Below the pieces are notes generated by a model, which searched no databases, was not told where the DNA came from, and worked only from the letters and a program-made list of their open reading frames with translations. A DNA stretch of 64,000 nucleotides from Crateriforma spongiae (lineage in GTDB: Bacteria > Planctomycetota > Planctomycetia > Pirellulales > Pirellulaceae). The stretch covers positions 41,991 through 105,990 of the forward strand of contig NZ_JAAXMS010000007.1 of NCBI RefSeq assembly GCF_012290005.1. The letters run 5' to 3'. This document shows positions 9,061-64,000 of the stretch, piece after piece; positions within the stretch are counted from its first letter, which is position 1; every line of letters begins with the position of its first letter. The position numbers and the translations under genes were made by a program.

Positions 9061-9083
9061 TCACGACCGTGATGGCAAAGCAG

Positions 9084-10184: not shown

Positions 10185-10290
10185 CGGTGAAAGAATTTGC
10201 AGTGTGTCCGGGGCCGTGATGAGTGTCATGGTGCACCAAGGGATAAACGCCGCAGCAAGAAAGAAGTATCGGTCAGAAATGGGACAGAAA

Positions 10291-11412: not shown

Positions 11413-11506
11413 GGTTGACTGACGGATTTGTGAAAACGGGATGACTGGAAGAAAACACAACCGATTGGTGGTAAACGGTGTGGAGTAATCGTCACTGTGA
11501 ACCGGG

Positions 11507-12610
11507 CTATTGCGCCGCCACCACTTCACGGCCGTTGCGGGTCCACATCGCTCGATAGGCGTCCAGATCGACATGCTCTGATAACAGCGTGACGCTTCCG
11601 TCACAATTTGCGACCATCACGCCGCCCGGGTGATTGCTGCGTGGGCCTCTCGCGATGAATGCACGTATGCCCAAGTCGGGATATCGGGAATTGGGAGTGT
11701 GCCAGCCATTGATCGCGGCACCACCACTGCCGAACGAAGAGATCCAGACACTGCCGCGGCGTGTGTCCCAGCTGTTGTGAGTGGTGATGAAAGCGTTGGC
11801 TTCTTGGGACATGACTTGATCACGGAAGTTCATCATGTCCGTCACGCTGCGGCCCTGCCCACCAGCGATCAGCGAACGAGAATGGTTCGGATCGACTACG
11901 GTCGGTGCCTCGGTTCCCGGACCCATCAACGTTTCGGCAAACATGATGGTGTTGCTGGTTCCGTCGATCACGTCGCGGAATCCGGTGCGAGCACCGACCC
12001 ATGTGATTCCGTCGGTGGGCTGGCCATAGTCGACGTAACTGTCGGTACCCGAGCCGACGTTGACAAAGTAGTTCACACCCGCAGCATCTATCACGATCGA
12101 TGGGCCACGTCGGGCCGGCTGGACGACTTGCTTGACAACCTCGGTGGTGTCACCTGGGCAATTCAAAAACGGAATCGCAATTTTCGCCGTTTCATCATGC
12201 GGCGAATTGAACCCGTCGGTCGATCGCCCCAACGGAATGCGATAATCGATCAGGTCGGCCACCTGACTCTGTTCGGCATAGGGCAACAGCTGGGCGTGCA
12301 GCGACCAACCATTGTTGATGTTCTGGCCGATCCCGGGAAAACGCTTGAATGCCGAATGATAGTTCTGCATCGCCAAGCCGAGCTGTCGGATGTTGTTCCC
12401 GCAGCTCATCCGCCGCGATGCTTCCCGGGCCGACTGAACCGCGGGCAGAAGCAGGCTGACCAAGATGCCGATGACCGCAATGACCACCAACAGTTCCACC
12501 AAGGTGAATCCAGATCGAGGTGGACGTCCGCCATTGGATTTGGTCAACGGGCGGGCAACAAAAAATAGACGGCGGCGCATCTTGGGTGGTCCTTTCCTGG
12601 CGTAAGACAA
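11507..12610 (-). CDS. DUF1559 / prepilin-type N-terminal cleavage-methylation protein (H-X9-DG family)
   Basis: [34 protein letters not shown] pseudopilin leader and helix. C-terminal [12 protein letters not shown] is H-X9-DG. Alternative start at 12580. Confidence 0.85.
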   Translation of the reverse strand: [367 protein letters not shown]

Positions 12611-12954
12611 CGTTCAAAGCTTCTGCCGACGTCCGAAAAATCGGATCGGCGGCAGCTTGCGCGTCGCTTGCTGGGACCGTTTGCAAGTTGCAGGAGAAAG
12701 AAGCCGGCCCAATCGCGACCGGATCCACCGCAACCCCCATACTCCACTGGCTGGCTAGCGTCTGACCAAATTCTTGATAATAGTTCTCAATAGCACAATG
12801 CTTAAACGCAGGAAACGATGCAAGAAATTTCAGCAGCGAAAAGCACGTTTTTTGCCGGTCCAACCCGAGCGTTTTGCGGTACGTTCCGGCGTGGGGACGC
12901 AAAGGCTGCATTCCGCGCCGGCCCTCAGGCTCTGCTGGGAACTCGGCTGGCACG

Positions 12955-14481
12955 CTATCGGGCCCACGCCGGCGTGCCGAACCAGTCGTGCATTTCTTTC
13001 TCGAACGGTGCGACGACGTCGCGTGGTTCGGCGATCCAGCCCCGGTCCCCCGTTTCGGTCATCCATATCTGCAAGGCGGTCCGCATGCGAATCAGCGTTT
13101 CGCGATGCTCGGCGATGTCTGATTCGGCCAGATTGTTGATCTCATGGGGGTCGGCTTGTGTGTCATACAACGACTCGGCCGGCATCGGTTTCATCAGTTC
13201 TGCTGCGGGGCCGATCAACAGACCCTGTTGATGCAGGTCACGCATCAGTGGCTTGACCAAGAAGCATTTTTCTTTGTAGCGATTCAGTGTTGCGAACCCC
13301 GTTCCCGGGGTCAGGTTGCGGATGTAGTGATACCGTCCGTCGTGAACGCTGCGTTGCGTGATCTCGGTTTCATCAATTCGGTCTCGCGCACTGAACGCAT
13401 AGCGACGTTCCGGTTGGTCGATCGAGCCAAACAGTGGACGGCCCTGCATGACGATGGGTGGTTTGATGCCGGCGATGGACAGCGTGGTCGCCGTCAGGTC
13501 GATCAAGCTGACCACTTCGTCGCGTTGTTGTCCTGCTGCAAATCCAATCGGGGGCTCGTGGTTGGCCGCCCATTGGATGACCAGCGGGACTCGGATACCC
13601 GAGTCCCAGACCCAGTGGATGCCCCGGGCTTCCAATCGACCGTTGTCGCCAAAGAAAATCACGACCGTGTCATCTTCCATGCCATCGGTCCGCAAGCGAT
13701 CCAAGATCTTCCCGATACGAATGTCTGCACCGGAGACGCTGTTCAGGTAGCGGGCCCATTCTTGACGGACGACGGGATGATCTGGGTAATAGGGAGGCGG
13801 GCTGACATTCTGCTCGGTTGCGACTTTCGGATGCCACTGTTCACCGACCCAGACGACGCGATCCTTTTCGGCTGATCGACGATCGTAGATGTCGTATTCG
13901 GCCTCGGGCAAATTGATCATCGCGAAGAACGGTTGATGCGACTTCAGCGTGTCCCAATTTTCGGTGTGATACAGCGGGCCTTCTGCGGTGAAATTCAAAT
14001 CCAGTTTGCCGGTGCCGACCACGGCATCACCGATGTTGGTGATATTCGCGGTGTAGTAACCCGCATCGCTTAATCGATGGGTGATCGGCCGGACGCCTTC
14101 GGGCAATCGAAATCCGTCGTCGCGATGCGACCGCATGTGATGGGTGTCCGTGGTCGTTTGGTACATCCCGGTCATGAACGCACTGCGACTGGGGGCACAG
14201 ACCGGTGACGTGGAAAACGCATTGACATAGCGGACTCCCCTGTCGGCCATTGCGTCGACGTTCGGTGTTTGGACGTTCTTGGCGCCGTAGCACTGGAAAT
14301 CCAAACCAAAGTTTTCGCCCACGATCCACAGGATGTTGGGTCTTCGCTGTGGCATTTCGGCACACAACGGTTGCCCTGCCCCGCCCAGGCAAAGCCACCA
14401 GAGACCCGCTGCCGCGGCACATGGCAAAATCAATCGATGGTTCCGGTGACGGGTGACTGGGTTCACGGTGGGCTCCGGCAA
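12955..14481 (-). CDS. Cys-type sulfatase (arylsulfatase A family)
   Basis: PNILWIVGENFG and the formylglycine signature CAPSRSAFMTG (C-x-P-x-R). Signal peptide present. Confidence 0.9.
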   Translation of the reverse strand: MPEPTVNPVTRHRNHRLILPCAAAAGLWWLCLGGAGQPLCAEMPQRRPNILWIVGENFGLDFQCYGAKNVQTPNVDAMADRGVRYVNAFSTSPVCAPSRSAFMTGMYQTTTDTHHMRSHRDDGFRLPEGVRPITHRLSDAGYYTANITNIGDAVVGTGKLDLNFTAEGPLYHTENWDTLKSHQPFFAMINLPEAEYDIYDRRSAEKDRVVWVGEQWHPKVATEQNVSPPPYYPDHPVVRQEWARYLNSVSGADIRIGKILDRLRTDGMEDDTVVIFFGDNGRLEARGIHWVWDSGIRVPLVIQWAANHEPPIGFAAGQQRDEVVSLIDLTATTLSIAGIKPPIVMQGRPLFGSIDQPERRYAFSARDRIDETEITQRSVHDGRYHYIRNLTPGTGFATLNRYKEKCFLVKPLMRDLHQQGLLIGPAAELMKPMPAESLYDTQADPHEINNLAESDIAEHRETLIRMRTALQIWMTETGDRGWIAEPRDVVAPFEKEMHDWFGTPAWAR

Positions 14482-14647
14482 CGTGGTGGCATAGAAAACG
14501 AAACAAGCGGCACGGTTTGTTTTACAATGACCGGCATCACCGTGTGGCTGTCGTTGGCGAACGTTCGCCTGCCGATTCGCACCGTTGACCCGCCCAATCC
14601 CACCGGATTAATTCTTTCCCGCCCCCTTTTTTGCGTTCTGGCCCGCC

Positions 14648-16147
14648 ATGAAAAACGATTCGTCCCACCTGAGTACCAATCGCCGTCAATTCACCAAGAC
14701 ATCCGCCGGCTTGTTGGCCGCGGGAACCGCCGCACTGGCGTTTCCCAGACGTGCAATGGCCGATGCAAATTCAAAGATGCGGATCGGTTTCGTGGGTGTC
14801 GGAGGTCGTGGTTTCGGAGCCCATGTCAAAAGCTTGACGAAGCTGGCAAAAGAAGGCGCACCGATCGAATTGGTTGCCGTTTGCGACGTCTACAACGTCA
14901 ACCGTGAAAAGGCTGCGAAATACATTCAGTCCAACTTGGGCAACGAACCGGCCCAGCACGTCGATTTTCGCGACATGTACGCTAAGGAAAACTTGGACGC
15001 CGTCTGCATCGGTACGCCGGATCACTGGCATGCCAAGCAAGCGATCGAAGCCATGCAGGCGGGCATCAATGTGTACTGTGAAAAACCGATGGTCAAAAAG
15101 GTTGAAGAAGCCATCGACTTGGTCAAGGTTTGGCGAAAGACCGGCGTCGTCATGCAAGTCGGTGTCCAGTCGACCAGCTTACCCGTTTGGGATCACGCCA
15201 ATCGATTGATCCGTGCCGGCCAGCTTGGCAAGGTTTTGATGTATCAGACCGAATACTTCCGCAACTCGGATCTCGGTCAGTGGCGGTACTATGAATTGAC
15301 CAAGGAAATGAATCCCAGCAATATCGACTGGCGACGGTTCCTGGGGGTGGACGATGGCTTGTCCGAAGAAGTGCCATTTGACCGCGCGGTTTATCGCCAA
15401 TGGCGTCGATTCTGGCCATTCGGCAGCGGCATGTTCACCGATCTGTTCGTTCACCGAACGACGACGATGTTGAAGGCGACCGGGCTGCGATATCCGGCGC
15501 GTGTGACTGGTTCGGGCGGGATCTATCTGGAATATGACGGCCGCGACGTTCCCGACGTGTCAACGGTCGTGGCGGAATTTAACGAGGGCGTTCAAGGCTT
15601 GGTCACTGCGACCATGGCGTCATCAGAAACGCCGATCAAGCAAGTCATTCGCGGTCACCATGGATCGTTCGTGTTTGGCAACCAAGAAGACTTTGACCAG
15701 TTCACGTTTGTCCCCGAACGACCTCAGGTGACGCACATCAGTCCCAAGGAAGTTCCCTATGAACCGCAGATCATTCGTCCCGATCAGCGGATGCCGGAAA
15801 ACAAGAATCACGCTCACTTTCAAAACTGGATCGATGCGATGGTCGCGAACGATCCCCAACTGTGCAACAACACGCCGGACTTGGGTGCCGCCGCAATTGT
15901 GATCGTCAACTTGGGGGCACGCAGCTATCGCCAAGGCAAGGTGTACCGCTTTGACGGCGATGAAATGGCGGTTTCCGAAGCCGATGGTTCATGGGCCAAG
16001 CGTTGGGAAGACCGGTCGCACCAACGTGGCAAGCCCGAGCATGTTCCGGGCTGGGAAGCCGGCGACACGGGATCCAAGATCTTTGATCCGGATTACCAAA
16101 AGCTGGAAGGCCCTTGGGTCGACGGCAAAGACCCGGCCGGCGCTTGA
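14648..16147 (+). CDS. Gfo/Idh/MocA-family oxidoreductase with Tat signal
   Basis: Twin-arginine leader NRRQFTKTSAGLLAAGTAALAFP. Rossmann motif RIGFVGVGGRG. GTPDHWHA motif. Confidence 0.85.
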   Translation: MKNDSSHLSTNRRQFTKTSAGLLAAGTAALAFPRRAMADANSKMRIGFVGVGGRGFGAHVKSLTKLAKEGAPIELVAVCDVYNVNREKAAKYIQSNLGNEPAQHVDFRDMYAKENLDAVCIGTPDHWHAKQAIEAMQAGINVYCEKPMVKKVEEAIDLVKVWRKTGVVMQVGVQSTSLPVWDHANRLIRAGQLGKVLMYQTEYFRNSDLGQWRYYELTKEMNPSNIDWRRFLGVDDGLSEEVPFDRAVYRQWRRFWPFGSGMFTDLFVHRTTTMLKATGLRYPARVTGSGGIYLEYDGRDVPDVSTVVAEFNEGVQGLVTATMASSETPIKQVIRGHHGSFVFGNQEDFDQFTFVPERPQVTHISPKEVPYEPQIIRPDQRMPENKNHAHFQNWIDAMVANDPQLCNNTPDLGAAAIVIVNLGARSYRQGKVYRFDGDEMAVSEADGSWAKRWEDRSHQRGKPEHVPGWEAGDTGSKIFDPDYQKLEGPWVDGKDPAGA

Positions 16148-16175
16148 TCGAGATTCGCCGACTCTCAAATCGTTT

Positions 16176-16204
16176 CCATCGCGACGAAATCATCGTCGCG
16201 ATGG
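16176..16204. terminator. Perfect 12-bp GC-rich hairpin between convergent genes (putative bidirectional terminator, no U-tract)
   Basis: ccatcgcgacga-aatca-tcgtcgcgatgg. The arms are exact reverse complements. It sits between the stop at 16147 (+) and the stop at 16259 (-). Confidence 0.45.
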
Positions 16205-16258
16205 CCAGCGGATCGACGGTCCGGTGGACCAAGTCCTAATGTCAGTGCACCGAGGATA

Positions 16259-17611
16259 CTACCCTTGATGCGGGTGCTGCCAAGGTTCGCGGTAAGCACG
16301 TGCCAGCCGCGCGGTCGCTTCATCATCCCCAACGATGGTGTGCGTCGCGGGGTCAAATTCCAGCGTGCGTCCCAGTTCCATCGCCTCGTTTGCCATGATG
16401 CACGACGCACTGCTGATGTGGCCTTGTTCAATATCGGCCACCGGACGACTGCGATCGTCGATGCAGTCAAGGAAATTCTGCATGTGTCCGCGAATCGCCG
16501 AAGCGACATGTAATTCCAAACGCCACTTTTCTTTGTCCGTCAGGTCGGTCGGATACTTGTCGGTTTCGATCAGCGGTTCACCGTGCAAGCGTTCGCCGCC
16601 CTGACGTGGAATGAAGTCGTATTTGTGCACGCTAAGTTTCAGCGTGCCCTTGGTGCCATAGATAATGGCGGCCCAGGGATACTCCGGATCGGGCGGTGAT
16701 CCCCAAGTCCGATGTGTCCACACGACATCCAGCCCGTCAAAGTCGAAGGTGGCGGTTTGGGTGTCCGAGATGTTCGCCTTTGATTCGGTATCCACCAGGA
16801 TTCCACCGGTGCTGCTGATGCGTTTGGGCCACCCCAAGTCCAATTGCCAGCGAACCAAATCCAGCATGTGCACACACATGTCGCCAACAATGCCGTTGCC
16901 GTATTCCATGAATGCCCGCCAACGTCTGGGATGCACCCATTCGTTGTACGGGCGCATCGGGGCCGGCCCGGTCCACATGTCGTAATCCAGGTTCGCCGGC
17001 GGCTGTTGGTCCGGCGGATTGCCTTTGGCACGCATGTGGTAATAACAGCAAACTTCGGCATAGGCGACGTCACCCAACAGCCCCGCATCGATCACCTTTT
17101 GTTTGGCTTCGATCAGGTGTGGCGTGCTACGTCGTTGCGTCCCCACCTGAACGACACGGTCGTGCTTTCGCGCGGCATCCAGCATCGCCTTACTTTCCAT
17201 CACGTCGACGCCCGTGGGTTTTTGGACGTACACGTCGGCACCGGATTCGACCGCGGCGATCATGGGCAATGCATGCCAATGATCCGGCGTGCCGATGATG
17301 ACGATGTCGTGTTGGTGATTGGCCAACTGCTTGCGGAAATCGCCATAGGTTTTCGGACGATTGCCCGAGGCTTGGCGTTTGGCAAACAGGTCCGCCGCTT
17401 CCTCGCGCATCTGCGAATCGACGTCACAGACCGAAACGATCTCCACCGGTGCAATGTTCAGCAACTGCAACGTGTCACATTTGCCGTACCAGCCCGATCC
17501 GATCAGCCCGACTTTGCGTGGCGAATCATTTCCGGCCGCATGGGCCGACCGAGCAATGGCCGCGGTGGTTGCCGCGGTCGCAGATCCGCGCAGAAACTGA
17601 CGACGATCCAT
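16259..17611 (-). CDS. Gfo/Idh/MocA-family oxidoreductase with Tat signal
   Basis: MDRRQFLRGSATAATTAAIARSAHA leader. KVGLIGSGWYG Rossmann motif. GTPDHWHA motif. Confidence 0.85.
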   Translation of the reverse strand: MDRRQFLRGSATAATTAAIARSAHAAGNDSPRKVGLIGSGWYGKCDTLQLLNIAPVEIVSVCDVDSQMREEAADLFAKRQASGNRPKTYGDFRKQLANHQHDIVIIGTPDHWHALPMIAAVESGADVYVQKPTGVDVMESKAMLDAARKHDRVVQVGTQRRSTPHLIEAKQKVIDAGLLGDVAYAEVCCYYHMRAKGNPPDQQPPANLDYDMWTGPAPMRPYNEWVHPRRWRAFMEYGNGIVGDMCVHMLDLVRWQLDLGWPKRISSTGGILVDTESKANISDTQTATFDFDGLDVVWTHRTWGSPPDPEYPWAAIIYGTKGTLKLSVHKYDFIPRQGGERLHGEPLIETDKYPTDLTDKEKWRLELHVASAIRGHMQNFLDCIDDRSRPVADIEQGHISSASCIMANEAMELGRTLEFDPATHTIVGDDEATARLARAYREPWQHPHQG

Positions 17612-17667
17612 AAATCAAACCTGACGTGATGGGGAAACGAGCAATACGGTAAGAAAACAACCGGTCG

Positions 17668-18570
17668 CTAGACGACGCACTGTCGAACGGCGTCGGTCAG
17701 TCCGGCAAGCGGATCGCCGGCGGGGATGAATTCATGGGCAAAGTAGCCGTCGAAGCCGGTTTCAGCGATCGCCTGGGCGATCGGCGGGTAATACAGTTCT
17801 TGAGTGGCGTCCAGTTCGTGGCGTCCCGGATTGCCGCCGGTGTGGTAGTGGCCAAACGCGTCATGGTTTTCGCGGATGGTCCGGATGATGTCGCCTTCCA
17901 TGATTTGCATGTGATAGATGTCGTAAAGCAACTTGAAATTGTCACTGCCGACGCGTTTGACCAGTTCGACGCCCCAGGTGCTGTTGTCACACATGTAATC
18001 GGGGTGATTGACTTTGCTGTTCAGCAATTCCATGTTCAGGATGACGTTGTGTTTTTCCGCCACTGGGGTGATCTTCTTTAGGGCATCCACACAGTTCTTC
18101 ATGCCGGTTTCGCGATCGATACCCCGTGCGTTGCCGCTGAAACAGATCACGTTGCGCCAGCCTTCCTTTGCAGTCGCTTCGATCGCCGCGTTCATCTTTT
18201 CCAACGCTTCGTCGTGATACTTCGTATCGCACAGGCCTTTGCCCAGGGAGTGTGAACTGACCATCGTGCAGATCAATCCGTGCTTTTTCAGCGTGGGGAA
18301 ATCCTTCGGTCCCAGCAGGTCGATTCCGACCAATCCAAGGTTGGCGGCTGCGGCAGCCATTTCCTCCAGCGAAAACATCTTGTAACACCATTTGCACACC
18401 GATTGGTTCAGCCGGCCTTGCTTGGCATCGACATTCTCGGTCGCCGTGGCGGGCTTCTCATCGGCCGATGTGACACTGGTGGTCGCGGCAAGGCCGGCGG
18501 CGGCACCGCCCACCGTTCCGGCGATGGCTTGGCGGCGTGAAAGGACGTTGTTTTGATCGGGGTGGGACAT
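17668..18570 (-). CDS. Sugar phosphate isomerase/epimerase (xylose-isomerase-like TIM barrel; hydroxypyruvate-isomerase-like) with Tat signal
   Basis: SRRQAIAGTVGGAAAGLAATTSV leader. VILNMELLNSKVNHPDYMCD, DIYHMQIMEGD and HYHTGGNPGRHE match the AP-endonuclease-2/Hyi-type TIM-barrel pattern. Start trimmed to the ATG at 18570 (alternative 18600). Confidence 0.75.
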   Translation of the reverse strand: MSHPDQNNVLSRRQAIAGTVGGAAAGLAATTSVTSADEKPATATENVDAKQGRLNQSVCKWCYKMFSLEEMAAAAANLGLVGIDLLGPKDFPTLKKHGLICTMVSSHSLGKGLCDTKYHDEALEKMNAAIEATAKEGWRNVICFSGNARGIDRETGMKNCVDALKKITPVAEKHNVILNMELLNSKVNHPDYMCDNSTWGVELVKRVGSDNFKLLYDIYHMQIMEGDIIRTIRENHDAFGHYHTGGNPGRHELDATQELYYPPIAQAIAETGFDGYFAHEFIPAGDPLAGLTDAVRQCVV

Positions 18571-18851
18571 CAGCGGGCTTTCATTGAAATCGCGGGCCAT
18601 GCGTCGGGGGGACGCCACGGCACTGCGAACGTGCGGGAAATCAGCCCGCATTGTCTTCGCCCAACGGGCGGAAAGCAAGTTTATGCGGCCTGTCCCAGAT
18701 TGCCGCGTCTGACGCGCCGACGGAATTCGCTTTGCACCCGAATCGAACTTGTCGGGGCGTCATGGCGATGTGCTGTCTCTCGACGCGATACGATTGTGGG
18801 CACATCGCTTTGACGAAATCGTCTGCCGGCCGACCATGAAACGGAGTCCCA

Positions 18852-20297
18852 ATGCAATCGTATCAAGCCGCATGTCGAATGATGACGTGGATGGTGCTGG
18901 TCGTTGGGTGCACGCCTGCGACCTTGGCGACGGGCAACAACACAGCGAATCCCGACGTTTTGGTAATCGTTGTCGATGACATGAACGACTGGGTTTCCCT
19001 GTTGGATCCCAACGCCCCCATCAAAACTCCTCATTTGAAACGTTTGGCAAAGCGGGGCGTGTCGTTCACGCGAGCCTACTGTGTTTCGCCGGCCTGCAAT
19101 CCATCACGGGCCGCGACTTGGACTGGACTGCGACCGTCAACCACCGGTGTGTACGGCAACAAGAGCGATTGGCGGCAAGCGGTTCCCAGTCGTCGGACGA
19201 TCATGCAGCAGTTCATGGCCGCCGGTTATGACGTACGTGGTGCGGGGAAAGTGTTTCATCATCATTTGGACGGAGCCTTTCACGATGGTGCTTCGTTCCA
19301 TGACTTCCAGCCGATGCGTCCGCAGTCGTATCCACGCGAAAAGCGGAACCAAGCGGATGAATACGGATCTCGGAACACCGATTGGGGGCCGTGGCCACCA
19401 CGTGAATCCGATGCGATCGATGTTCACACGGCTGACTATTGCATCGATGCGTTGCGTCAGCCTTCCGATGGAGGGCCACAGTTTCTGGTCTGCGGAATCT
19501 TCAAGCCGCATTCACCCTTCTTTGCTCCCGCGGAGTATTTTCCGGCTTACGATAACATCGGCCTTCCTGTCCGCGATCCCAACGATTGGAACGATCTTCC
19601 AGACGGTGCCCATTCGTTGTTGCAACAGAAAGCGTGGTTCTGGCGGGGCATGATGGACCTGGAACGTCGTGCGAAAGGTTCCTATCACGACTTCGTCCAG
19701 GCCTACGCAGCATGTGCTAGTTTTGCCGATGCGCAAATTGGCCGAGTCTTGGATGCACTGGATCAAAGTCCCCGCCGCAACAACACGATTGTGGTGCTAT
19801 GGTCCGATCACGGTTTCCATCTGGGCGAAAAGGACCACATCGAGAAGTTTGCGCTGTGGGAAAAGGCGACGCACATTCCCTTCATCGTGGTGGCCCCAGG
19901 AGTGGCGGTTCCCGGTGGGCGTTGTGATCGTCCGGTTGACATGACCGTGTTGTATCCGACCTTGCTTGAACTTTGTGGTTTGCCTGTCGATGCGCGGTGT
20001 GATGGAAACAGTGTGGTTCCTTTGTTGCGGGATCCTCAGGCCCGATGGGTTCGTCCGGCGTTGATGACGTACCTGCCCGGGAATCATGCCGTCCGAAGTC
20101 AGCGTTGGCGTTACATCCGATACGCCGATGGCAGCGAAGAACTTTATGACCACAACGCCGATCCAGACGAGTGGATAAATCTGGCCGGCGAACATCGCTA
20201 TGCACCCGTGATCAAATCACATCGACGGTGGATTCCAGAATCCGAAGCCAAACCGGTCGTTGATTTACAACGCGCCGGTAAGAAAGCCGGGCAATGA
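18852..20297 (+). CDS. Cys-type sulfatase
   Basis: VLVIVVDDMNDW and CNPSRAATWTG (C-x-P-x-R). WSDHGFHLGEK conserved region. Confidence 0.9.
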   Translation: MQSYQAACRMMTWMVLVVGCTPATLATGNNTANPDVLVIVVDDMNDWVSLLDPNAPIKTPHLKRLAKRGVSFTRAYCVSPACNPSRAATWTGLRPSTTGVYGNKSDWRQAVPSRRTIMQQFMAAGYDVRGAGKVFHHHLDGAFHDGASFHDFQPMRPQSYPREKRNQADEYGSRNTDWGPWPPRESDAIDVHTADYCIDALRQPSDGGPQFLVCGIFKPHSPFFAPAEYFPAYDNIGLPVRDPNDWNDLPDGAHSLLQQKAWFWRGMMDLERRAKGSYHDFVQAYAACASFADAQIGRVLDALDQSPRRNNTIVVLWSDHGFHLGEKDHIEKFALWEKATHIPFIVVAPGVAVPGGRCDRPVDMTVLYPTLLELCGLPVDARCDGNSVVPLLRDPQARWVRPALMTYLPGNHAVRSQRWRYIRYADGSEELYDHNADPDEWINLAGEHRYAPVIKSHRRWIPESEAKPVVDLQRAGKKAGQ

Positions 20298-20339
20298 CCA
20301 TCAATCTGTACCAGGCTCGGACCATCATAAGATCCAATC

Positions 20340-21278
20340 ATGCATAAGAACAGACTTTCTGGTTTGGTCGCAGCGACGTACACACCGTTGCGGGATGACG
20401 GAACGGTGAATTTGGATATCGTCGATCCTTTTGTGGAACACTTGTTCAACAACGGCGTCAGCGGTTTGTACGTCTGTGGCAGCACGGGTGAAGGCATGTC
20501 CCTGACGATCGCCGAACGAAAGGCCACCGCGGAAGCATTCGTACGGGCGTCCGGTGGTCGTCTGCCCGTCATTGTCCAGGTCGGCCACAATAGTCTGGCC
20601 GAGGCGAGAGGGCTTGCCGGGCACGCGCAGGAAATTGGCGCGGATATCATTTCGGCGACTTGCCCGTCCTACCATAAAGTCGGTTCGGCCGGCGGATTGA
20701 CTGATTGCATGATCGAGGTCGCCGGCGGCGCGCCGGATCTCCCATTCTACTATTACCACATTCCGGCCCTGACCGGTTCGAATCTGGATGTGCTTGAATT
20801 TTTGAAACGCGGCGGCGAAAAGATTCAAAATCTTGTCGGTTTGAAGTATACCGACACAAAGCTGTTCGAATTTCAGGAGTGTTGCGAACTGGATGACGGT
20901 CGATTTGATGTTGTTTGGGGATGTGACGAAATGTTGCTGGGTGCTTTGGCCACCGGAGCCACAGGTGCGATCGGCAGCACTTACAACATTGCCAGCGGCC
21001 TGTACCGCCGAATCATTAGCGCGTTCGACCAAGCCGATTTTGCACAAGCACGCCGGTGGCAATCGCTGTCAGTCAAGATGATTCGCACGATGAATGGCTA
21101 TCCGTTCCACCCCGCGATGAAAGCCGTTCTGGAGTTGCGCGGGTTTGCGATGGGTGGTTGCCGACTGCCGCAGGGACGTTTGACTTGCGACGAGATCATA
21201 CGATTGAAAGCCGAGTTGCAGTCAATTGGTTTTTTCGATTGGTCACAAGACGGTCCAAATCCCGGAACGACACAATGA
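20340..21278 (+). CDS. nanA: N-acetylneuraminate lyase-like class I aldolase (DapA/NanA family)
   Basis: GLYVCGSTGEGMSLT, FYYYHIPALTG and the VGLKYTD Schiff-base lysine context. The C-terminal half resembles animal and bacterial NPL/NanA rather than DapA. The genomic context (NanM-SSS fusion downstream) supports this. Confidence 0.7.
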   Translation: MHKNRLSGLVAATYTPLRDDGTVNLDIVDPFVEHLFNNGVSGLYVCGSTGEGMSLTIAERKATAEAFVRASGGRLPVIVQVGHNSLAEARGLAGHAQEIGADIISATCPSYHKVGSAGGLTDCMIEVAGGAPDLPFYYYHIPALTGSNLDVLEFLKRGGEKIQNLVGLKYTDTKLFEFQECCELDDGRFDVVWGCDEMLLGALATGATGAIGSTYNIASGLYRRIISAFDQADFAQARRWQSLSVKMIRTMNGYPFHPAMKAVLELRGFAMGGCRLPQGRLTCDEIIRLKAELQSIGFFDWSQDGPNPGTTQ

Positions 21279-21443
21279 CTGCCTTCTGGAAGACTGACCA
21301 ACCGACGAATCATGCCATCGCATGTCGGTCCGTTGCTTGTTGCGTTTCGAGCACTGGCATAGTGCCGGGACACCGCTCGTTCGCAGTAAGACGAAGCCTG
21401 TGTGTCGGTGCGATGATTTGGATGAACAGAATAGGCAGACAGC

Positions 21444-22943
21444 ATGAACGACCTTCGGTTTGATAATCAGGTTATCTCGAGTTCTTCCTTGGCGTATCGG
21501 CGGTATCGTGACAGTTGGGCCTACGCGATTTTGAGGCTGATTTGTGTGCCTGCGGTGATGCTGATGGTTGGGTCCAATCCGATCGTCGCGGAATCGGCAG
21601 ACACCAACGTGGTTCTGATCTTGATTGACGACCTGGGTTGGAAGGATCTCGGTTGTTACGGGAGCGACTATTACCAAACGCCCAATGTCGATCAGCTCGC
21701 CCGCGAAGGCATGAGGTTCACCAATGGGTATGCCGCGTGCAACGTCTGTTCTCCGTCGCGAGCCGCGATTGTTAGCGGCAAATACCCTGCTCGACTACTG
21801 TTGACGCAGTGGTTGCCGTCGGGGCGTTGGGATCCGCAAAAGATGCGACTTCGCGAAGGTCGCTACTTGGCCAATCTTCCGCTGGAGGAATTCACCGTCG
21901 CCGAGGCGATGCGAGATGCCGGTTACCGAACCGCTTTCATTGGGAAATGGCATTTGGGAACGGAGACTTACTACTATCCCGAGCACCAAGGTTTTGATGT
22001 CAATATTGCCGGTCGCGATTATGGGGCACCCGGCAGCTACTTTTATCCCTTTGAAGGTACTTGGAAGATTCCAACCACGGGAAAAGTGCTGCAAAAAACG
22101 TCTCCGCTTGCAGGCACCAAAGGCGACTATCTTCCGGATCGTTTGGCGGAAGAAGCTGAGGCGTTCATTCGCAAAAATGCCGAGCATCCATTCTTTCTGA
22201 TGCTGTCACACTACGCGCTGCACACCCCGTTGCAGGCGAAGCAGGAGAAGATCGACCGCTATCGTCAGATTCCAGAAAGCCAGCGGCAAGGAAAGCCCAC
22301 CTATGCGGCGATGGTGGAGAGCATTGATGAGAGTGTGGGACGCGTGATGGCGACGTTGCGGGACGTCGAGATCGATGACCAGACCCTGGTGATCTTTACA
22401 AGTGACAACGGTGGGAACGCGAATGTAACCAATCACAGTCCGCTGCGTGGGAACAAAGGGTCGAACTACGAAGGCGGTCTTCGTGTGCCGCTGATCATCA
22501 AATGGCCCGGAAAGACTCGCCCAGGTTCGGTGTCGGACGAACCTGTGATTGGAACGGACTTTTATCCAACCATCTTGGAAGCGACCGGCCAAGCGTTACG
22601 ACCGCATCAGCATGTGGATGGCGAAAGTCTGGTTCCCGTGCTGATGGAATCGGGCGGTTTGAATCGAACGGCCATTCATTGGCATTATCCGCATTACAAC
22701 CAGCATCCGTCGGCTTTCCCGTCCGGGGTGATTCGTGCAGGCGATTGGAAGCTAATTGAAGCCTACGAATCGCGAGAACTGTCACTGTACAACCTGGCCG
22801 ACGACCTTGGTGAAACCACAGATCTGTCGGAACTTCGGCCTGACAAGCGAGATGAGTTGTACCGACGGTTGAAAACTTGGCGCGACGCGGTTGGTGCGGA
22901 TCCGATGAGACCCAATCCGGAGTATCAGGAAGACCAACAGTGA
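21444..22943 (+). CDS. Cys-type sulfatase
   Basis: [29 protein letters not shown] and FTSDNGG. Its TGA stop overlaps the next gene's ATG (tgATG). Confidence 0.9.
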
Positions 22944-25576
22944 TGCGTCCCGCAATACTGCCCTGTGCCATCGTCCTGTTTTTCGTGCTTGCCGGCGCGG
23001 GCGATCCGAGCGTGTGTGCGGAAGACACGATCAGGCTTGATTGGCAAGAAATGCCATCAGTGCCGGACGAGCTAGGATTCGCCGGTCCGTTCGTCGGAAT
23101 TCATAATGATGCCTTGATTGTGGCCGGCGGTGCAAATTTTCCAAAACCGGTTTGGGAACAATCCAAGGTTTGGCACGATCGCGTCTTTGTGCTGACGCAA
23201 GCTGGTCTGAATGATGGCTGGAAAGAGGTCGGCAGACTGCCTCGGCCGATCGCATATGGTGCTGCGGTTTCGACGCAGATGGGCGTCGTTTGCATGGGCG
23301 GAAGTGACTCGCAGACCACTTATGACGACGTGTTTCTTTTGCGCTGGGACCCGGACACCGAAGCGATCGACGTCACATCGTTCCCAAAACTTCCCCAGCC
23401 GTGTGCGTATTCTACAGCGACGGTTATTGACGATGTGATCTATTTGGCCGGTGGCCAAAGCGGTCAATCGCTGGACACGGCGATGGCAAATTTTTGGTCA
23501 TTGGATTTGTCCCACAGGTCAAGCGGCGACGGCTGGCGATGGACCCAGCACCAAGTTTGGCCGGGGCCTGGACGAGCATTCAATCTGACCGTCCGGCAAC
23601 ACAACGGCTACAACGATTGCGTTTATGTCATCAGCGGACGCCGGCAGGATGGCGATCCGAACGATCCGGAGGATATTGAGTTCTTGCGGGATGTGTGGGA
23701 ATACAACCCGTCGACCGGTCACTGGCGTCAGCGTGCAGATGCACCACGATGTGTGATGGCGGGAACTGGCATTGGTGTGGGCCAAAGTCATGTCATGGTC
23801 TTGGGCGGTGCGACCGGGGAGTTGTTCTTTCAGGCGGATGAACTGAAAGATGATCATCCCGGATTTATCCGACAGGCTCTGGCGTATCACACGATCACTG
23901 ATACGTGGGTCCCTGCCGGTGAAACACCAATCAATCAAGTCACGACGACAGCGGTCAGGTGGGGTGACGCGATTGTCGTACCTAGTGGCGAAATTCGCCC
24001 GCGTGTTCGTACGCCGCGTGTTTTTCGTGTCAGCGTTGGTCGATCGACTGTTCGTTTTGGGGCCGTCAACTACATCGTGCTGTTCGGGTACCTGGCATTA
24101 ATGGTGGGAATCGGTCTGTATTTCGCACGAAAAAACAAAAGCACCGAAGACTATTTTCGTGGCGGAAAACAGATTCCGTGGTGGGCCGCCGGATGCAGTA
24201 TTTTTGCAACAATGTTGAGTTCGCTGACCTTTACAGGAATTCCATCCAAGTCGTTTGCGCAAGACTGGGTGTACGCCATTGGTAACTTGATGATTCCTGT
24301 CGTGGCGGTCATTGCCGTCTACATTGCGATGCCGTTCTTTCGAGGTATCGATGCGACCAGCGCATATGAATACTTGGAGAAGCGATTCAGTCGCTCCGTA
24401 AGATTATTCGGAAGCGCCAGCTTCACCCTGTTCCATTTGTTTCGCATGGCTGTTGTCATGTCTTTGACCGGGTTGGCCTTGTCGGTGGCCACACCGCTGA
24501 CACCCACACAATCGGTATTGCTGATGGGTGTTTTAAGCATTGTTTATTGCACAATGGGCGGCATCGAAGCGGTGATCTGGACAGATACGATTCAAACGGT
24601 CGTCTTGTTGGGTGGCGCAATGTTGGCTGTGGTGCTGCTGATCGCTGGTGTGGACGGTGGCGTGTCCGGGTTTTGGTCCGTCACCACGGAAGCGGACAAA
24701 TTCAAGCTTGCCAATTTTCACTGGGACATCACGAGCAGCCAAGTTGCTTTGTGGGTGGTTGTTGTGGGGGCCTTTGCCCAGAACATTTCGTCCTACACCG
24801 CGGATCAGGCCGTGGTCCAGCGTTACATGACCACCGCGGATACGCGATTGGCGGCGCGTTCGATTTGGACCAATGCGGTTCTGACGATTCCCGCGACGAT
24901 TTTGTTTTTCGGTATCGGAACCGCGTTGTTCGCTTTCTATCAATCGCATCCGCAAAAGCTGGATCCTACGATCACGACGGACCAAGTGTTTCCACTGTTT
25001 ATCGCTCGCGAGATGCCCGTTGGTTTTGCCGGACTGATTGTGGCGGGTATTTTTGCTGCGGCTCAGTCTACGGTTTCAACCAGCATGAATTCCACGGCAA
25101 CCGCGGTCGTGACCGATTTCATGCGTCCGAGGCAATTTTGCCGATCGGAGGCCGGGTATCTGGCCGCGGCAAGATGGTGCACCTTTTTGATCGGCGTCGT
25201 CGGTACGCTGCTTGCGATGGTGTTTGTGGACCCAGAGATCAAATCACTCTTTGACACATTTCTGCGTGTCATCGGTGTTTTTATGGGAGTGCTGGGCGGA
25301 CTGTTTGTCCTTGGCGCGTTGACGCGGCGAGCCAATGCAATCGGTGCGATGATCGGTGCCCTGGTCGGTGCCACGGTGATGTTTTGCCTGTGGAAATTTA
25401 CGCAGGTTAACGGATTTCTCTATACGGCAACGGGGATCACATCCTGTGTCGTGGTCGGGATGCTTAGCAGTCTGGTCTTTCAGCGGCCGGTTCAAGATTT
25501 GACCGGCTTGACCATCTACACCATGACTGAACCAGTCGACGCGCAACCGTTGTCCCGGGCGGAGGAATTGGGCTAG
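22943..25576 (+). CDS. Fusion of an N-terminal Kelch beta-propeller (NanM-like sialic-acid mutarotase) with a C-terminal sodium:solute symporter (SSS) permease
   Basis: Signal peptide [20 protein letters not shown]. Kelch/NanM-type repeats ([46 protein letters not shown]) run up to ~24050. From ~24060 there are ~13 TM helices with SSS motifs ([26 protein letters not shown]). Start trimmed to the ATG at 22943. Confidence 0.8.
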
Positions 25577-28500
25577 GAGCCCTCTTGGGTTTTGCCTTCC
25601 TCGAACGCCTTTTCAACGTCCTGGTAGGTCTGCACCATTCGATCCAACTGTTGTTGCAGTTGTTGCAAATCGGTGCCGCTTTCGATCTGGTTCTGCAGGA
25701 TCGGCCGCAGCCATTCTTGCATCAGATGAAATTGGCCTTTGACCAATTCGGCCAGTACGCGGGGAACCTTGTGCTGGACCAGTACCTTCTGGTCCGGCGG
25801 CGAAGCGGCTTGCTGTTGGGCGATTTGTTCCAAACGCTGTGTCGTCGCGTTGAGCGATTCGGAAAGCTGAGCTCCCGAAGTGACCAGTCCGTCTCGGATC
25901 GATTCGACACGTTGGTCCATGCGGCGTTGTTGGTCTTCATCACCGACCGCGACGGCACGACTGATCACGGCGCGGATCGATTCCAAGCCGTCGCGCATTG
26001 ATGCCAGTTGTCGCAGCAATTGCCCGGTCGTGTCGCTGTCGTCCAGGCCCGACATGCGGACGCTTTCGACGAAGGCGTATTTGATGCCGTCCCAACGTTC
26101 TTTCTGTTCTGGCGTCAGAACGCCCAACAGTTCGCGGAACTTCAGCATGTTCGCTTCGTTATCCGTGGTCAGCGTCTGGGCATCTTGTTCGTAACTGCTG
26201 ACGATCAGTGACTGCAATTCGCGATCGTTCATCACCGGCGCGACCTTTTCGGCGATCCGGTTCATGTTTCGATAGCTGCCTTGCAGTTTGAAAGGTGGTT
26301 CGGTTCGATAGGCGTCCGCTTGGGCGGCACTTTGGATGTAGGTTCGGTTGACTTTCAGGACGACGTCACGCACACGCAACAGTTTGCGAATGACTTCGTA
26401 CATGTCGTTCAGCTGGTCGGGGCTGATCTTGGTTTCCAGTTCGATCCCTTCCATCGAATCGCGCTGAGCCGCCGCGATGATGGCGCGGGCGTCCGATGGT
26501 GGCGCTGTCGATAGTGGTGCCAAAGTCGGATTGCTGGTCAAACAGTTTTCCAGATACGACATTTCGAATGCGTCGGAAGATTCACCGATAATTTCGCCCA
26601 AGTTGTATACGTCCGCACGGTTGGAAAGCATGTCGGGGATCTGGAACCGTTCGCCCGATTCGGTGTAGGGGTTGCCCGCCATGACAACCGCGACACGACG
26701 ACCGCGCAAATCATAGGTGCGTGTCTTGCCGTCGCGGACACCTTCGATCTTCCGCGTGGCATCGCACAAGGAGATGAACTTCTGCAGTAGTTCCGGATTG
26801 GTGTGCTGAATGTCGTCCAGGTACAGCATCACGTTGTCACCCATTTCCAGGGCTAAATTCAATCGCTGGACTTCTTCTCTGGCGGCGGCGTTGGGGGCTT
26901 CGGCGGGATCCAGCGAAGTGACACCGTGGCCGATCGCCGGGCCGTTGATCTTCATGAAGACGATCCCCAAGCGATTGGCGATGTATTCCATCAAGGTCGT
27001 CTTGCCGTACCCCGGTGGCGAGATCAATAGCAACAGCCCCATGCGATCGGTGCGTTTGCCGGCACCCGCAGCGCCGATTTGTTTGGCCAAGTTGTCACCG
27101 ATCAGCGGCAGATAGACTTCGTCCAGCAACCGGTTACGGACAAAACTGGTCAAGACCCTTGGTTTGAATTCATCCAAACGCATGGAGTCACGCGACTGTT
27201 CGACGATCCGGTTTTTCGATTCGTGTAGCCGCTGAAAACTCGGAACGACCGAACGGACGTAATGACTCATTCGATCGGTGAATTCGTGATAGTCCAACGA
27301 CAGCTTTCCGCCGCTGATTCGCGGATGGCTGCCGACGATTCCGGAAAGCGTTTGGGCCGTCTCTGCGGTGGCGGTTTTGAACGAATCCGCACCACCCCAC
27401 TGGATCAACAAGGCCAGTTCATTGCGGTGCGCGCTGGCTTTTTGACGATCGGAATCGGAAAGTGAATCGATATGGGCGTCCGCCCAGTTGCGGGCGAGAA
27501 CAAAGGCTTGTGTCGCCGAAACACTGGCTGTTTTTCCAGTGGTCGGCATTTTTCCTGCGGTTTGGAACTGCGTGTACAAGTCCGCCGCGTCACGGCTGAT
27601 CGTCGACTTGCGGACCGAGGTCGTCAGTTGGTCGAACAGGTAATCGGCCATCCGATGCGGTGTCAAAGTCGAATCAAACAGGGACGAAAATTCATCAAAT
27701 TGTGCGGTGATTGCGTCACACAATTGCTGGTGAAATTGACGCGCCGGTGTGGCATTTGGATACGCCTTGGCAAGTCGGCCGTAGCCGCCCACCCAATCAG
27801 AAAACGATTTCTGTGTGGCGGTGTCGGTTAGCTTCTTCAGCCACAGTAGTGACGCCGCACGGACCGTTGGCGAATGACGCAGCAACCCCAGTTGCCGATC
27901 CATCGCAAGCAGCGTGGTCAGCACGATCGCCGCATCATGATCGTGCACACCTTTTGCGTAACCTTCTTCGAAACGGCCCGCCATCTGTTTTTGGACCCAG
28001 GTGGTCCATTGCGGCAATGCCTCGGGATCGTCCGCATCAAGTTCGGTTGGAAGCGTTCCGCTGCTGATGGAACGAAACAGGTCGTACGCCAGGTATTCGC
28101 CACGATAGACATCGCGGTTTTCGCTGATCAATTCTTGATCCCAAAGATCGCGGGCATCTTCCAACGCCGCATCATGCAGGGGATCAAAGTACTGGGTGCC
28201 GGTCAAGTGAAGGCACATTTGACCGTCACGTAAGACGGTGGTCAGGTCCAGCGGTTGGGTATTGACGGCAAAACGCTTGTCGCCCAGACGGATGACTTCG
28301 CCGCCGTCCTCGTACAACTCGCGACGATCCTTCAATTGCCGAACGGCGTCTTCGCGAGCCGATTTCAGTCGTCCACGGAGGTCTTCGGCGCGGACGGCAT
28401 CGTTCAAGTCATCCAGCGAATCGACGATGTCGCGGACCTTTTGGACCATCAGATCGCCGGCAAAGTATGCGGCGATTTCCTCGGGAGTCTCGATCGTATC

Positions 28501-35484: not shown

Positions 35485-35931
35485 ATGTTGCGATCCCGCC
35501 TGATCCATCCCCAGATCAACGCCGTTCTTGCCGCCGCCGGGCACCACAGCACCATTCTGATCGCCGATGGCAACTACCCTGCCCTGAACAAACGTGGCCC
35601 CAACGCCGAATTGGTCAGTTTGAATCTGATGCCGGGATTGGTCACGTGCGATCAAGTCCTGCAGGCGGTCTTGTCGGCCGTCCCGGTGGAGCGGATTCAG
35701 ACGATGCAGACCGAAACCGAAGGCCCTTATGCGCTGGACGGCGATCCACCGGTTTGGGACGACTATCGAAAATCGATCCGGGACGCCGGATTGGATTTAC
35801 AGATCGAGCCGATCGAAAAGTGGGATTTCTACAAAGCCGTCGAAACTCCCGATCACGTGCTGACGATCCAAAGTGGCGACCAACAGCGGTACGCCAACAT
35901 TTTGCTGTCCATCGGCGTCCGCATGGACTGA
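35485..35931 (+). CDS. RbsD/FucU family sugar mutarotase/pyranase
   Basis: MLRSRLIHPQINAVLAAAGHHSTILIADGNYPA and the C-terminal QQRYANILLSIGV are typical of RbsD/FucU. Confidence 0.75.
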   Translation: MLRSRLIHPQINAVLAAAGHHSTILIADGNYPALNKRGPNAELVSLNLMPGLVTCDQVLQAVLSAVPVERIQTMQTETEGPYALDGDPPVWDDYRKSIRDAGLDLQIEPIEKWDFYKAVETPDHVLTIQSGDQQRYANILLSIGVRMD

Positions 35932-58125: not shown

Positions 58126-58156
58126 CGGAGACGATGTACGTGAGCGGACCGACTCA

Positions 58157-59776: not shown

Positions 59777-59785
59777 TGTATTGAA

Positions 59786-60317: not shown

Positions 60318-60375
60318 TCCAATCTATTCGCTTGTAAAATCTATTTGAATCGAATTATCTGTTGGGAGATTTTGG

Positions 60376-61545: not shown

Positions 61546-61554
61546 AGGCGTGAA

Positions 61555-62814: not shown

Positions 62815-62827
62815 TGTTTCATTCGTC

Positions 62828-63143: not shown

Positions 63144-63154
63144 TGAGACTTGTC

Positions 63155-63937: not shown

Positions 63938-64000
63938 TGCGGAATCGACGAAGCAAGTGGGAACGTTGGTTTGGGAAGCTTCGGCCGTGCGATGACGCAA

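Follow-up and report, generated by a model that had tools for sequence, protein, structure and literature searches.

Much is known of sialic-acid scavenging in gut bacteria and pathogens, and very little of it in marine Planctomycetota. Here we describe a locus of eight genes in the marine planctomycete Crateriforma spongiae, which lies in a 64-kb stretch of DNA (contig NZ_JAAXMS010000007.1, positions 41,991 to 105,990 of the forward strand) that we call the window and within which all coordinates below are counted. The locus holds the three sulfatase genes of the window (sulf1, sulf2, and sulf3), a gene for a lyase of the NanA/NPL type, a gene for the fused mutarotase and transporter SiaF, two genes for Gfo/Idh/MocA oxidoreductases (gfo1 and gfo2), and one for a TIM-barrel protein; the proteins encoded there have identical counterparts in WP_168566345 to WP_168566350 of C. 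spongiae. An earlier note had taken these genes for a single sialic-acid-type locus. Searches with Pfam and NCBIfam recovered all eight open reading frames (ORFs) at the coordinates and with the domains that it gave, and its gene list is accurate, whereas gene order divides the list into two units on different strands. In Unit 2 (12955–18600, mixed strands), a neighbouring module, sulf1 (−) and gfo1 (+) are followed by gfo2 and the TIM-barrel gene (both −); Unit 1 (18852–25576) is a four-gene operon on the plus strand, in the order sulf2, lyase, sulf3, and siaF. Our observations concern domain content, catalytic motifs, operon architecture, comparative synteny, and co-deletion. On these grounds we consider it probable that the two units are independent and that Unit 1 represents the known SiaF-type cluster for sialic-acid scavenging in Planctomycetota, in a variant equipped with sulfatases.

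Gene Layout of the Operon

The first gene of the operon, sulf2 (18852–20297, +), encodes an exported Cys-type S1 sulfatase of the S1_7-like type with the motif CNPSR (Pfam Sulfatase, 152.4 bits), and its leader contains a lipobox-like VVGC. After a gap of 42 bp comes the lyase gene (20340–21278, +), whose product belongs to the DHDPS family (PF00701, 172.8 bits) and is predicted to be cytoplasmic, having no signal peptide. The third gene, sulf3 (21444–22943, +), encodes another exported Cys-type S1 sulfatase, this one of the S1_16 type with the motif CSPSR (Pfam Sulfatase, 210.5 bits). Its stop codon overlaps the start codon of siaF (22877/22943–25576, +), for which the ATG at 22943 is the likeliest start; the sequence of the junction is GTGATGCG. 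The N-terminal part of SiaF (22943–24049, +) consists of a signal peptide and a periplasmic NanM-like, cyclically permuted Kelch beta-propeller, the sialate mutarotase domain, and the C-terminal part (24050–25576, +) is a Na+/solute symporter (SSS) domain related to the sialic acid transporter SiaT.

Genes for the later steps of sialic-acid catabolism, and for the release of sialic acid, are not found nearby. Pfam scans of the 45 larger ORFs of the window returned no ROK kinase (PF00480), NanE (PF04131), GlcNAc_2-epim (PF07221), or BNR sialidase domain, and tblastn with six planctomycete queries for the AGE-family N-acetylglucosamine (GlcNAc) 2-epimerase and six for the GH33 sialidase gave no match at E<1e-3 in the window. 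The absence of NanK, NanE, and AGE, which had already been noticed, is therefore confirmed for these 64 kb. When an AGE sequence of Fuerstiella was used as a query against protein databases, no Crateriforma protein was among the 120 matches listed (at least 75% identity), which says nothing either way. A scan of 12500–26000 for promoters and terminators gave counts at or below shuffle expectation and was of no help in defining the operons.

The Lyase and the Transporter

The best PDB matches of the lyase were all deposited as N-acetylneuraminate lyases: 5afd (9e-60), 6arh (2e-59), and 6h4e (7e-58). The values for other structures are far weaker, at about 1e-28 for the E. coli-type NanA, 2e-27 for the best DapA, and 1e-22 for the 2-keto-3-deoxygluconate (KDG) aldolase YagE. 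The protein, which had been proposed to be NanA-like, thus groups with characterised N-acetylneuraminate lyases and not with non-sialate aldolases. In E. coli NanA numbering, it retains S47, T48, Y137, L142, K165, T167, G189, D191, E192, and S208. Its own residues S48, T49, Y139, and K169 align with S47 and T48 of the GSTGE motif, Y137, and K165, the Schiff-base lysine of this class I aldolase, and its G194, D196, E197, and S213 align with the sialate-specific G189, D191, E192, and S208; in NanA, the DE pair (D191 and E192) and S208 hold the sialate chain. The sialate-residue motifs are also visible in the HMMER alignments to 5afd and 6arh.

The fusion of NanM with an SSS transporter was among the genes listed in the earlier note. 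This architecture is already published and is not new: the clade of NanM-fused ST5/SSS proteins was named SiaF by Severi et al. in 2021 (PMC8461474) and was reported in Bacteroidetes, Planctomycetes, and Verrucomicrobia, mostly within nan clusters, its function being still unproven (PMC8461474). In the protein of the window, a hydrophobic leader of 20 residues precedes the NanM domain, which scores 118.6 bits with PF24996 (NANM; cut-off 45) and 145.9 with TIGR03548, under the cut-off of 243. The SSS domain (PF00474, 135.8 bits) matches 5nv9, the SiaT of Proteus mirabilis, with an E-value of 5.6e-110 and 41% identity. The carboxylate-binding residues S60, T63, and R135 of SiaT are kept, as are G81, N247, and the Na2 and Na3 sites, and the substitutions T58M, F78Y, Q82N, F243A, and Q250S are seen (for the roles of these residues in SiaT, see PMC5931594). 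With few exceptions, this pattern recurs in the 49 other SiaF sequences examined, also in those encoded beside a sialidase and AGE; it is the signature of the clade, and the protein of the window is therefore a typical SiaF, a member of the published clade for which sialic-acid transport is predicted.

The Surroundings of SiaF in Other Genomes

Species-representative genomes were scanned for SiaF, and 65 loci were retrieved, 61 of them with a clear SiaF homologue (46–76% identity); ORFs were called in these loci and clustered, and the clusters were annotated with Pfam. Where single loci are cited below, they are given by their L numbers. The lyase gene stands directly upstream of siaF in 35 of the 61 loci. 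An AGE-family epimerase is encoded in 18/61, mostly directly downstream of siaF, a GH33 sialidase, stand-alone or fused, in 14/61, a sialate O-acetylesterase (SASA) domain in about 8 of the 61, and an AraC-type regulator in 5. Sulfatases of any type are found in 14 of the 65 retrieved loci.

The lyases of these loci fall into more than one group. In the orthologous group of the window lyase (56–67% identity), AGE is next door in 10 of the 14 loci that could be evaluated, while in the remaining lyase–SiaF loci, the lyases of which are mostly 39–54% identical to that of the window (29–31% in three cases), AGE is largely absent. Because about half of the lyase–SiaF loci of other planctomycetes have no adjacent epimerase, the local absence of nanK, nanE, and an epimerase gene from the window, real as it is, is not unusual and does not in itself speak for a new route.

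Two further observations concern the same loci. In 14 lyase–SiaF loci with lyases 45–54% identical to that of the window (L013, L015, L016, L019–L021, L025, L030, L034, L036, L041, L043, L045, and L047), AGE is never adjacent; this group may use a different substrate, for example 2-keto-3-deoxynononic acid (KDN), whose cleavage product needs no epimerase. The second concerns the gap between the lyase gene and siaF, which is filled by sulf3 in the window. Extra genes are inserted there in two relatives (L003, 7925–8692, and L001, 9010–9846), one encoding a PhyH-family dioxygenase and the other an LrgB-like membrane protein, and the gap is evidently a variable slot of the operon.

A Natural Deletion in Crateriforma conspicua

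A segment of 5,937 bp corresponding to 18824–24760 of the window is missing from C. conspicua Mal65 (CP036319.1) and from a second assembly. The deletion takes sulf2, the lyase gene, sulf3, and 606 codons from the start of siaF, so that a C-terminal SSF remnant of 288 amino acids stays; its flanks are 92.5–93.1% identical to the window, and the breakpoints abut with an overlap of 3 bp. The TIM-barrel gene, gfo2, gfo1, and sulf1 are intact in both assemblies. Two other C. conspicua genomes (GCA_007860215.1 and GCA_047300955.1) have the full operon in the same eight-gene arrangement. The nan/sulfatase operon was therefore ancestrally present and was then lost as one block, and the extent of the deletion, matching the boundary of the operon, supports the division into two units. 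At the level of strains, C. conspicua thus offers a natural knock-out of the nan/sulfatase operon.

In Mal65, there is also a second indel, at about 9077–12948 of the window, by which the DUF1559 gene is lost together with most of the PepSY_TM gene and most of the EF-hand gene, so that only short remnants still align. The retained block of sulf1, gfo1, gfo2, and the TIM-barrel gene is therefore flanked by two deletions in this strain.

Sulfatases Linked to the nan Genes

The subfamily labels used here for the sulfatases are taken from the nearest solved structures. For sulf2, these are the arylsulfatase 6hhm (5e-46) and iduronate-2-sulfatase (7e-34), both of which we take to be S1_7 enzymes, 6hhm being presumably an ulvan sulfatase. 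The best match of sulf3 is 9fo1, a "k-carrageenan sulfatase S1_16" (2e-138), and that of sulf1 is 9bb9, an "S1_8A sulfatase" (9e-79). Characterised S1_16 enzymes act on the 4-sulfate of galactose (Gal) or N-acetylgalactosamine (GalNAc), and S1_8 enzymes act on N-sulfoglucosamine (PMC10154612).

Both sulfatase types of Unit 1 recur beside nan genes in other planctomycetes. In seven other SiaF loci, sulfatases like sulf2 (32–36% identical to it) are encoded no more than three called ORFs away from the nan genes, and these nan-linked S1_7-like sulfatases form a coherent set, with mutual identities of 29–44% vs 21–29% to other sulfatases. In L053, an orthologue of sulf3 (59% identity) occurs together with a sulf2-like gene, and in L060, a relative of sulf3 (40%), a sulf2-like gene, a third sulfatase gene, and a SASA esterase gene are followed by the lyase–SiaF pair.

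The link is closest where the sulfatase is covalently joined to a sialidase. In L001 and L032, a single unbroken ORF of 2209–2255 amino acids combines an S1_7-like sulfatase, a GH33 sialidase, SASA, and a second sulfatase; it lies directly upstream of the lyase gene in L001 (1051–7680) and one sulfatase gene away from it in L032 (244–7011). Sulf2 is 33–34% identical to the N-terminal domain of these fusions, in both of which that domain carries the same CNPSR motif. A database search showed the architecture to be widespread in Planctomycetota and Verrucomicrobiota, with 434 matches at E<=1e-30; all 120 of the listed cluster representatives pair a sulfatase with a sialidase and/or esterase domain, 118 of them with a sialidase. 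These homologues (1200–2750 amino acids) come from Fuerstiella, Rubripirellula, Mariniblastus, Blastopirellula, and Verrucomicrobiota, and their source annotation goes no further than "sulfatase-like hydrolase/transferase" or "sialidase-1". A literature search surfaced no paper on sulfatase–sialidase fusions in Planctomycetes, and none that combines "Crateriforma" and "sialic acid".

The recurrence on the nan side, the pairing of the two types in L053 and L060, the fusions, and the placement in the operon together support a functional link of the S1_7-like and S1_16 sulfatase types to sialic-acid harvesting, as judged from gene content. The link between sulfatase and sialic-acid genes that the earlier note had proposed thus recurs in other planctomycetes, down to fused sulfatase–sialidase–esterase proteins. 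Its reading of the locus as one for sulfated sialoglycans gains support for Unit 1, from the S1_7-like sulfatases near SiaF and from the fusions; Unit 2 falls outside it.

A Proposed Route and Its Alternatives

From these observations we infer the substrates, the order of the reactions, and co-expression of the genes as follows. The two exported formylglycine sulfatases would take sulfate esters off sialylated glycans, or off released sugars, outside the cytoplasm. The source of free sialic acid would be a sialidase whose gene lies elsewhere, or other organisms in the vicinity. In the periplasm, the NanM propeller, which is joined to the transporter, would turn the sialic acid into the beta-anomer, which the Na+-coupled SSS domain would bring into the cell. 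In the cytoplasm, the lyase would cleave it to pyruvate and N-acetylmannosamine, and the onward steps (AGE and a hexokinase, or NanK and NanE) would lie outside the locus, presumably elsewhere in the genome.

Several observations weigh against this proposal and are best considered together. First, the lyase falls under both NCBIfam equivalog cut-offs for NanA, scoring 157 against 281 with NF003164 and 132.5 against 382 with TIGR00683. These models may be centred on other lineages of N-acetylneuraminate lyases; because the cut-offs are missed, we call the protein NanA/NPL-type, by homology and motifs, rather than a proven equivalog. Second, SiaF departs from SiaT at residues that touch the N-acetyl group and the glycerol tail of the substrate. 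Third, with sialidase, AGE, NanK, and NanE all absent from the 64-kb window, the pathway is incomplete as seen. Fourth, the characterised enzymes to which the sulfatases are closest have as their substrates carrageenan, Gal/GalNAc-4-sulfate, iduronate-2-sulfate, and, for 6hhm, presumably ulvan, and none of them acts on sialoglycans specifically. Fifth, sulfatases are not significantly denser within two genes of the nan core (10/217) than farther out (11/355; p=0.37).

Alternatively, the substrate of the operon might not be an N-acylneuraminic acid at all but another sugar acid, either KDN, which on cleavage gives mannose and so needs no epimerase, or some other 2-keto-3-deoxy or nonulosonic acid from sulfated marine polysaccharides. 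The locus has neither AGE nor a sialidase; F243, F78, and Q82 of SiaT, which form the N-acetyl pocket and contact the glycerol tail, are A, Y, and N in SiaF; the nearest characterised sulfatases include enzymes for algal polysaccharides, the kappa-carrageenan sulfatase of S1_16 and the presumed ulvan sulfatase 6hhm; and the scores of the lyase could be read in the same way. The identical SiaF pattern, however, occurs in loci with a GH33 sialidase, a sialate O-acetylesterase, and AGE, the orthologous group of the window lyase is the one in which AGE is commonly adjacent, and the residues D191, E192, and S208, which contact the sialate chain, are kept in the lyase. We therefore regard a substrate of this other kind as doubtful.

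The sulfatases, for their part, might be bystanders, placed by chance beside the nan genes in genomes that are rich in sulfatases, without any functional coupling. This would fit the lack of a significant difference in density around the nan core, the total numbers of sulfatases in SiaF and control loci (22/736 vs 9/599, p=0.10, not significant), and the 47 of 61 SiaF loci that have no sulfatase. Because of the near-versus-far comparison, we claim no general enrichment of sulfatases, only recurring types and fusions. S1_7-like sulfatases account for 7 of the 736 ORFs near SiaF and for 0 of 599 in the control set (p=0.019); that set consists of gfo2 and TIM-barrel loci and is not taxonomically matched, which is a further reservation. 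Chance placement is nevertheless hard to reconcile with the translational coupling of sulf3 to siaF and the short distance between sulf2 and the lyase gene, with the recurrence of both sulfatase types in independent nan loci, with the covalent fusion of S1_7-like sulfatases to sialidase and sialate esterase in many proteins of the Planctomycetota–Verrucomicrobiota–Chlamydiota (PVC) group, or with the deletion of the four genes as one block. On balance we think it unlikely that the sulfatases are unconnected with the operon.

Under the scavenging reading that we prefer, the locus and its relatives show that planctomycete sulfatases are found time and again within operons for sialic-acid uptake, and even within one protein with sialidases and sialate esterases, which points to sulfated sialoglycans as a real class of substrate. 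Among these might be animal mucins and echinoderm-type sulfated sialic acids. A review of 2023 states that sulfated sialic acid has no reported microbial sulfatase (PMC10017367), and the sulfatases linked to nan genes or fused to sialidases make reasonable candidates for this activity. One may go further and speculate that the nan-linked S1_7-like enzymes of the sulf2 type, and possibly sulf3 of S1_16, are the missing microbial sialate O-sulfatases, which would remove 8-O- or 9-O-sulfate from sialic acids for the sialidase, NanM-SiaF, and NanA, much as the SASA esterase removes O-acetyl groups; we hold this to be a long shot. The more conservative expectation is that they desulfate the underlying Gal, GalNAc, and GlcNAc in sialylated glycans. 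The locus offers specific genes to consider for a sulfatase acting on sialate or sialoglycans, an activity for which no microbial enzyme is known.

Comparison with Known Systems

The closest known counterparts of Unit 1 are the SiaF-type nan clusters of Planctomycetota, Verrucomicrobiota, and Bacteroidota (PMC8461474). Both have a signal peptide, a cyclically permuted NanM propeller, and an SSS domain with 13 transmembrane segments, tied to a NanA-type lyase, and the SiaF of the window is 60–76% identical to its homologues in other planctomycetes. The operon of the window differs from these clusters in its two embedded sulfatases and in having no NanE-II/AGE, sialidase, or regulator. The main text of the paper that describes the clusters makes no mention of sulfatases (PMC8461474).

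In the Bacteroidetes pathway, NanA is followed by NanE-II/AGE and RokA, as in nanLET of B. fragilis. The planctomycete loci related to that of the window resemble it, with the arrangement [sialidase]–lyase–SiaF–AGE–[AraC-type regulator], and the window lyase belongs to that group. The window itself is unlike it in that no AGE gene is found in its 64 kb and in that its transporter is an SSS protein with NanM, not one of the major facilitator superfamily (MFS).

For the sulfatases, the mucin O-glycan and glycosaminoglycan loci of Bacteroides thetaiotaomicron may be compared, in which sulfatases of S1_4, S1_11, S1_15, S1_16, and S1_20 are found and in which periplasmic formylglycine sulfatases and exo-glycosidases open capped, sulfated host glycans (PMC10154612). 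S1_16 is common to both, whereas the S1_7-like type of sulf2 is not on the list of mucin sulfatases (PMC10154612). Unlike those loci, the window has no SusC/D pair and no glycoside hydrolase, and its sulfatases are placed inside an operon for the uptake and catabolism of a monosaccharide, not in a polysaccharide utilisation locus.

The Neighbouring Module

Unit 2 begins with sulf1 (12955–14481, −), which encodes an exported Cys-type sulfatase of the S1_8-like type (CAPSR; Pfam Sulfatase, 119.7 bits). It is followed by gfo1 (14648–16147, +) and gfo2 (16259–17611, −), both assigned to Gfo/Idh/MocA by Pfam, with the N-terminal twin-arginine motifs NRRQFTK and DRRQFLR. Co-directional with gfo2 is the TIM-barrel gene (17668–18600/18678, −), the product of which is xylose-isomerase-like, of the hydroxypyruvate-isomerase family (PF01261, 97.8 bits), and carries the motif SRRQAIA. 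Export of these three proteins by the twin-arginine translocation (Tat) system was read from the motifs alone. The TIM-barrel protein scores 103 with TIGR03234, against a cut-off of 353, and has homologues of 70–83% identity across Pirellulales and Planctomycetales that are annotated as the hydroxypyruvate isomerase family.

The earlier note had suggested that the two oxidoreductases and the isomerase may form an alternative route, downstream or upstream. In its fullest form, this would make all eight genes one utilisation locus, in which the Tat-exported Gfo pair and the TIM-barrel protein replace the missing steps of NanK/NanE/AGE or act upstream, for example by an oxidative, NAD-dependent reaction that releases or converts sialosides in the periplasm. 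There is something to be said for it. The genes are adjacent, the TIM–gfo2 operon and that of sulf2 diverge from a common intergenic stretch of about 250 bp, and the arrangement is kept in C. spongiae and two C. conspicua genomes. Gfo/Idh/MocA enzymes do act on derivatives of sialic acid (NanOx/NanY), and on glycosides via 3-keto intermediates, and 5 SiaF loci hold Gfo proteins, though these are only distant paralogues (27–30% identity).

The synteny data speak largely against it. No orthologue of the TIM barrel, gfo1, or gfo2 was found within 10 kb of SiaF in the 61 loci. Conversely, gfo2 has at least 595 metagenome relatives, and among the best 80 of them (59–74% identical), none has the lyase or SiaF within 10 kb; when the neighbours in these 80 loci were clustered, the only recurrent partner was the TIM barrel, in a few close relatives. 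In strain SH139, the TIM–gfo2 pair lies at 0.33 Mb and the lyase–SiaF pair at 4.75 Mb, about 4.4 Mb apart, and in Rhodopirellula rubra, the TIM gene is found by itself, next to genes for pyruvate dehydrogenase. The trio also stays intact where the nan operon has been deleted. Moreover, because the twin-arginine signals place the trio in the periplasm while the product of the lyase arises in the cytoplasm, a role as a downstream substitute for NanK/NanE or AGE is excluded on the predicted topology. Synteny of the trio with nan genes is thus confined to Crateriforma, and neither an alternative route through the trio nor its membership of the nan locus could be upheld; a single eight-gene pathway is very unlikely, and on the synteny data largely refuted. 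The set of sulf1, gfo1, gfo2, and the TIM barrel appears instead to be a separate periplasmic sugar-oxidising and -isomerising one, which stands beside the nan operon only in the genus Crateriforma. It is tempting to build a "new pathway" from Gfo/Idh/MocA and TIM-barrel genes, but such genes are very common in planctomycete genomes, and we set the idea aside.

As to what Unit 2 does, both Gfo proteins have their best NCBIfam match in NF058561, "glycoside 3-dehydrogenase" (the BT_2158 family), gfo1 with 121.5 bits and gfo2 with 154. The match covers only the N-terminal half (about 270–295 residues; model positions 1–272 of 487), and both scores miss the cut-off of 750, by which identity with the BT2158 equivalog is ruled out. 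The best PDB matches of gfo1 are DgpA, 8tdf, and 8tdh, over the N-terminal domain only, and those of gfo2 are 8tdf and 8tdh. Two other identities were considered and rejected. NanOx (NanY, YjhC), the oxidoreductase of 2,7-anhydro-N-acetylneuraminic acid (2,7-anhydro-Neu5Ac), has the Gfo/Idh/MocA fold and takes part in the scavenging of sialic acid, but it is cytoplasmic and tied to dedicated transporters of anhydro-sialic acid or to intramolecular trans-sialidases (IT-sialidases), whereas gfo1 and gfo2 have Tat signals; similarity to RgNanOx/YjhC (structures 6z3c and 6o15) is confined to the Rossmann domain (residues 36–202 or so; E-values 1.6e-15 and 4.4e-9). Identity with GH109 is likewise ruled out, 2ixa and 6t2b matching at 1e-6 to 5e-10 and over the N-terminal domain only.

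Our best guess is that the chemistry of the trio is related to the periplasmic 3-keto-sugar or 3-keto-glycoside pathways. The AL/BT2156-2160 pathway, which cleaves glycosides by oxidation and elimination, consists of a Tat-exported Gfo dehydrogenase, a protein of the sugar-phosphate-isomerase type, a DUF1080 protein, and a cytosolic Gfo reductase (bioRxiv 10.1101/2024.03.25.586180; PMC8121099), the DUF1080 (PF06439) family being that of its hydratase. Unit 2, and only this unit, has in common with it the Tat Gfo/Idh/MocA dehydrogenases and an isomerase-type TIM barrel in the periplasm. It differs in that both Gfo proteins carry Tat motifs, leaving no cytosolic reductase, in that its TIM barrel is of the hydroxypyruvate-isomerase type, and in that no PF06439 protein is encoded beside the Gfo and TIM genes, the nearest being at 48528–50024. 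The trio resembles a part of the scheme without being a member of it. The gene at 48528–50024 (+), about 23 kb from the Gfo and TIM genes, encodes 498 amino acids with a PF06439 "3-keto-disaccharide hydrolase" domain. A DUF1080 protein resembling its product is encoded directly downstream of SiaF in L019 and L020.

Flanking Genes and Other Features of the Window

The genes on either side of the region are unrelated to it. To the left they encode a pseudopilin-like protein (DUF1559), a PepSY_TM protein, and an EF-hand protein. To the right, a gene at 25573–30819 (−) encodes a protein of 1748 amino acids that contains DUF3686 ("ATPase involved in DNA repair") and DUF7902 and has an AAA domain at its C-terminus. 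This DUF3686/AAA gene is convergent with siaF, the stop codons of the two overlapping, and it is conserved in C. conspicua.

Farther along the window, a gene at 35485–35931 (+) encodes a stand-alone sugar mutarotase of the RbsD/FucU family (PF05025, 109 bits), which is unrelated to the nan operon. Towards the end of the window, at 56000–64000, the G+C content falls to 0.50–0.53, from about 0.57–0.59 elsewhere, and this segment contains a run of plus-strand ORFs (56890–62814), none of which matches any Pfam family; it may be a horizontally acquired or lineage-specific island.

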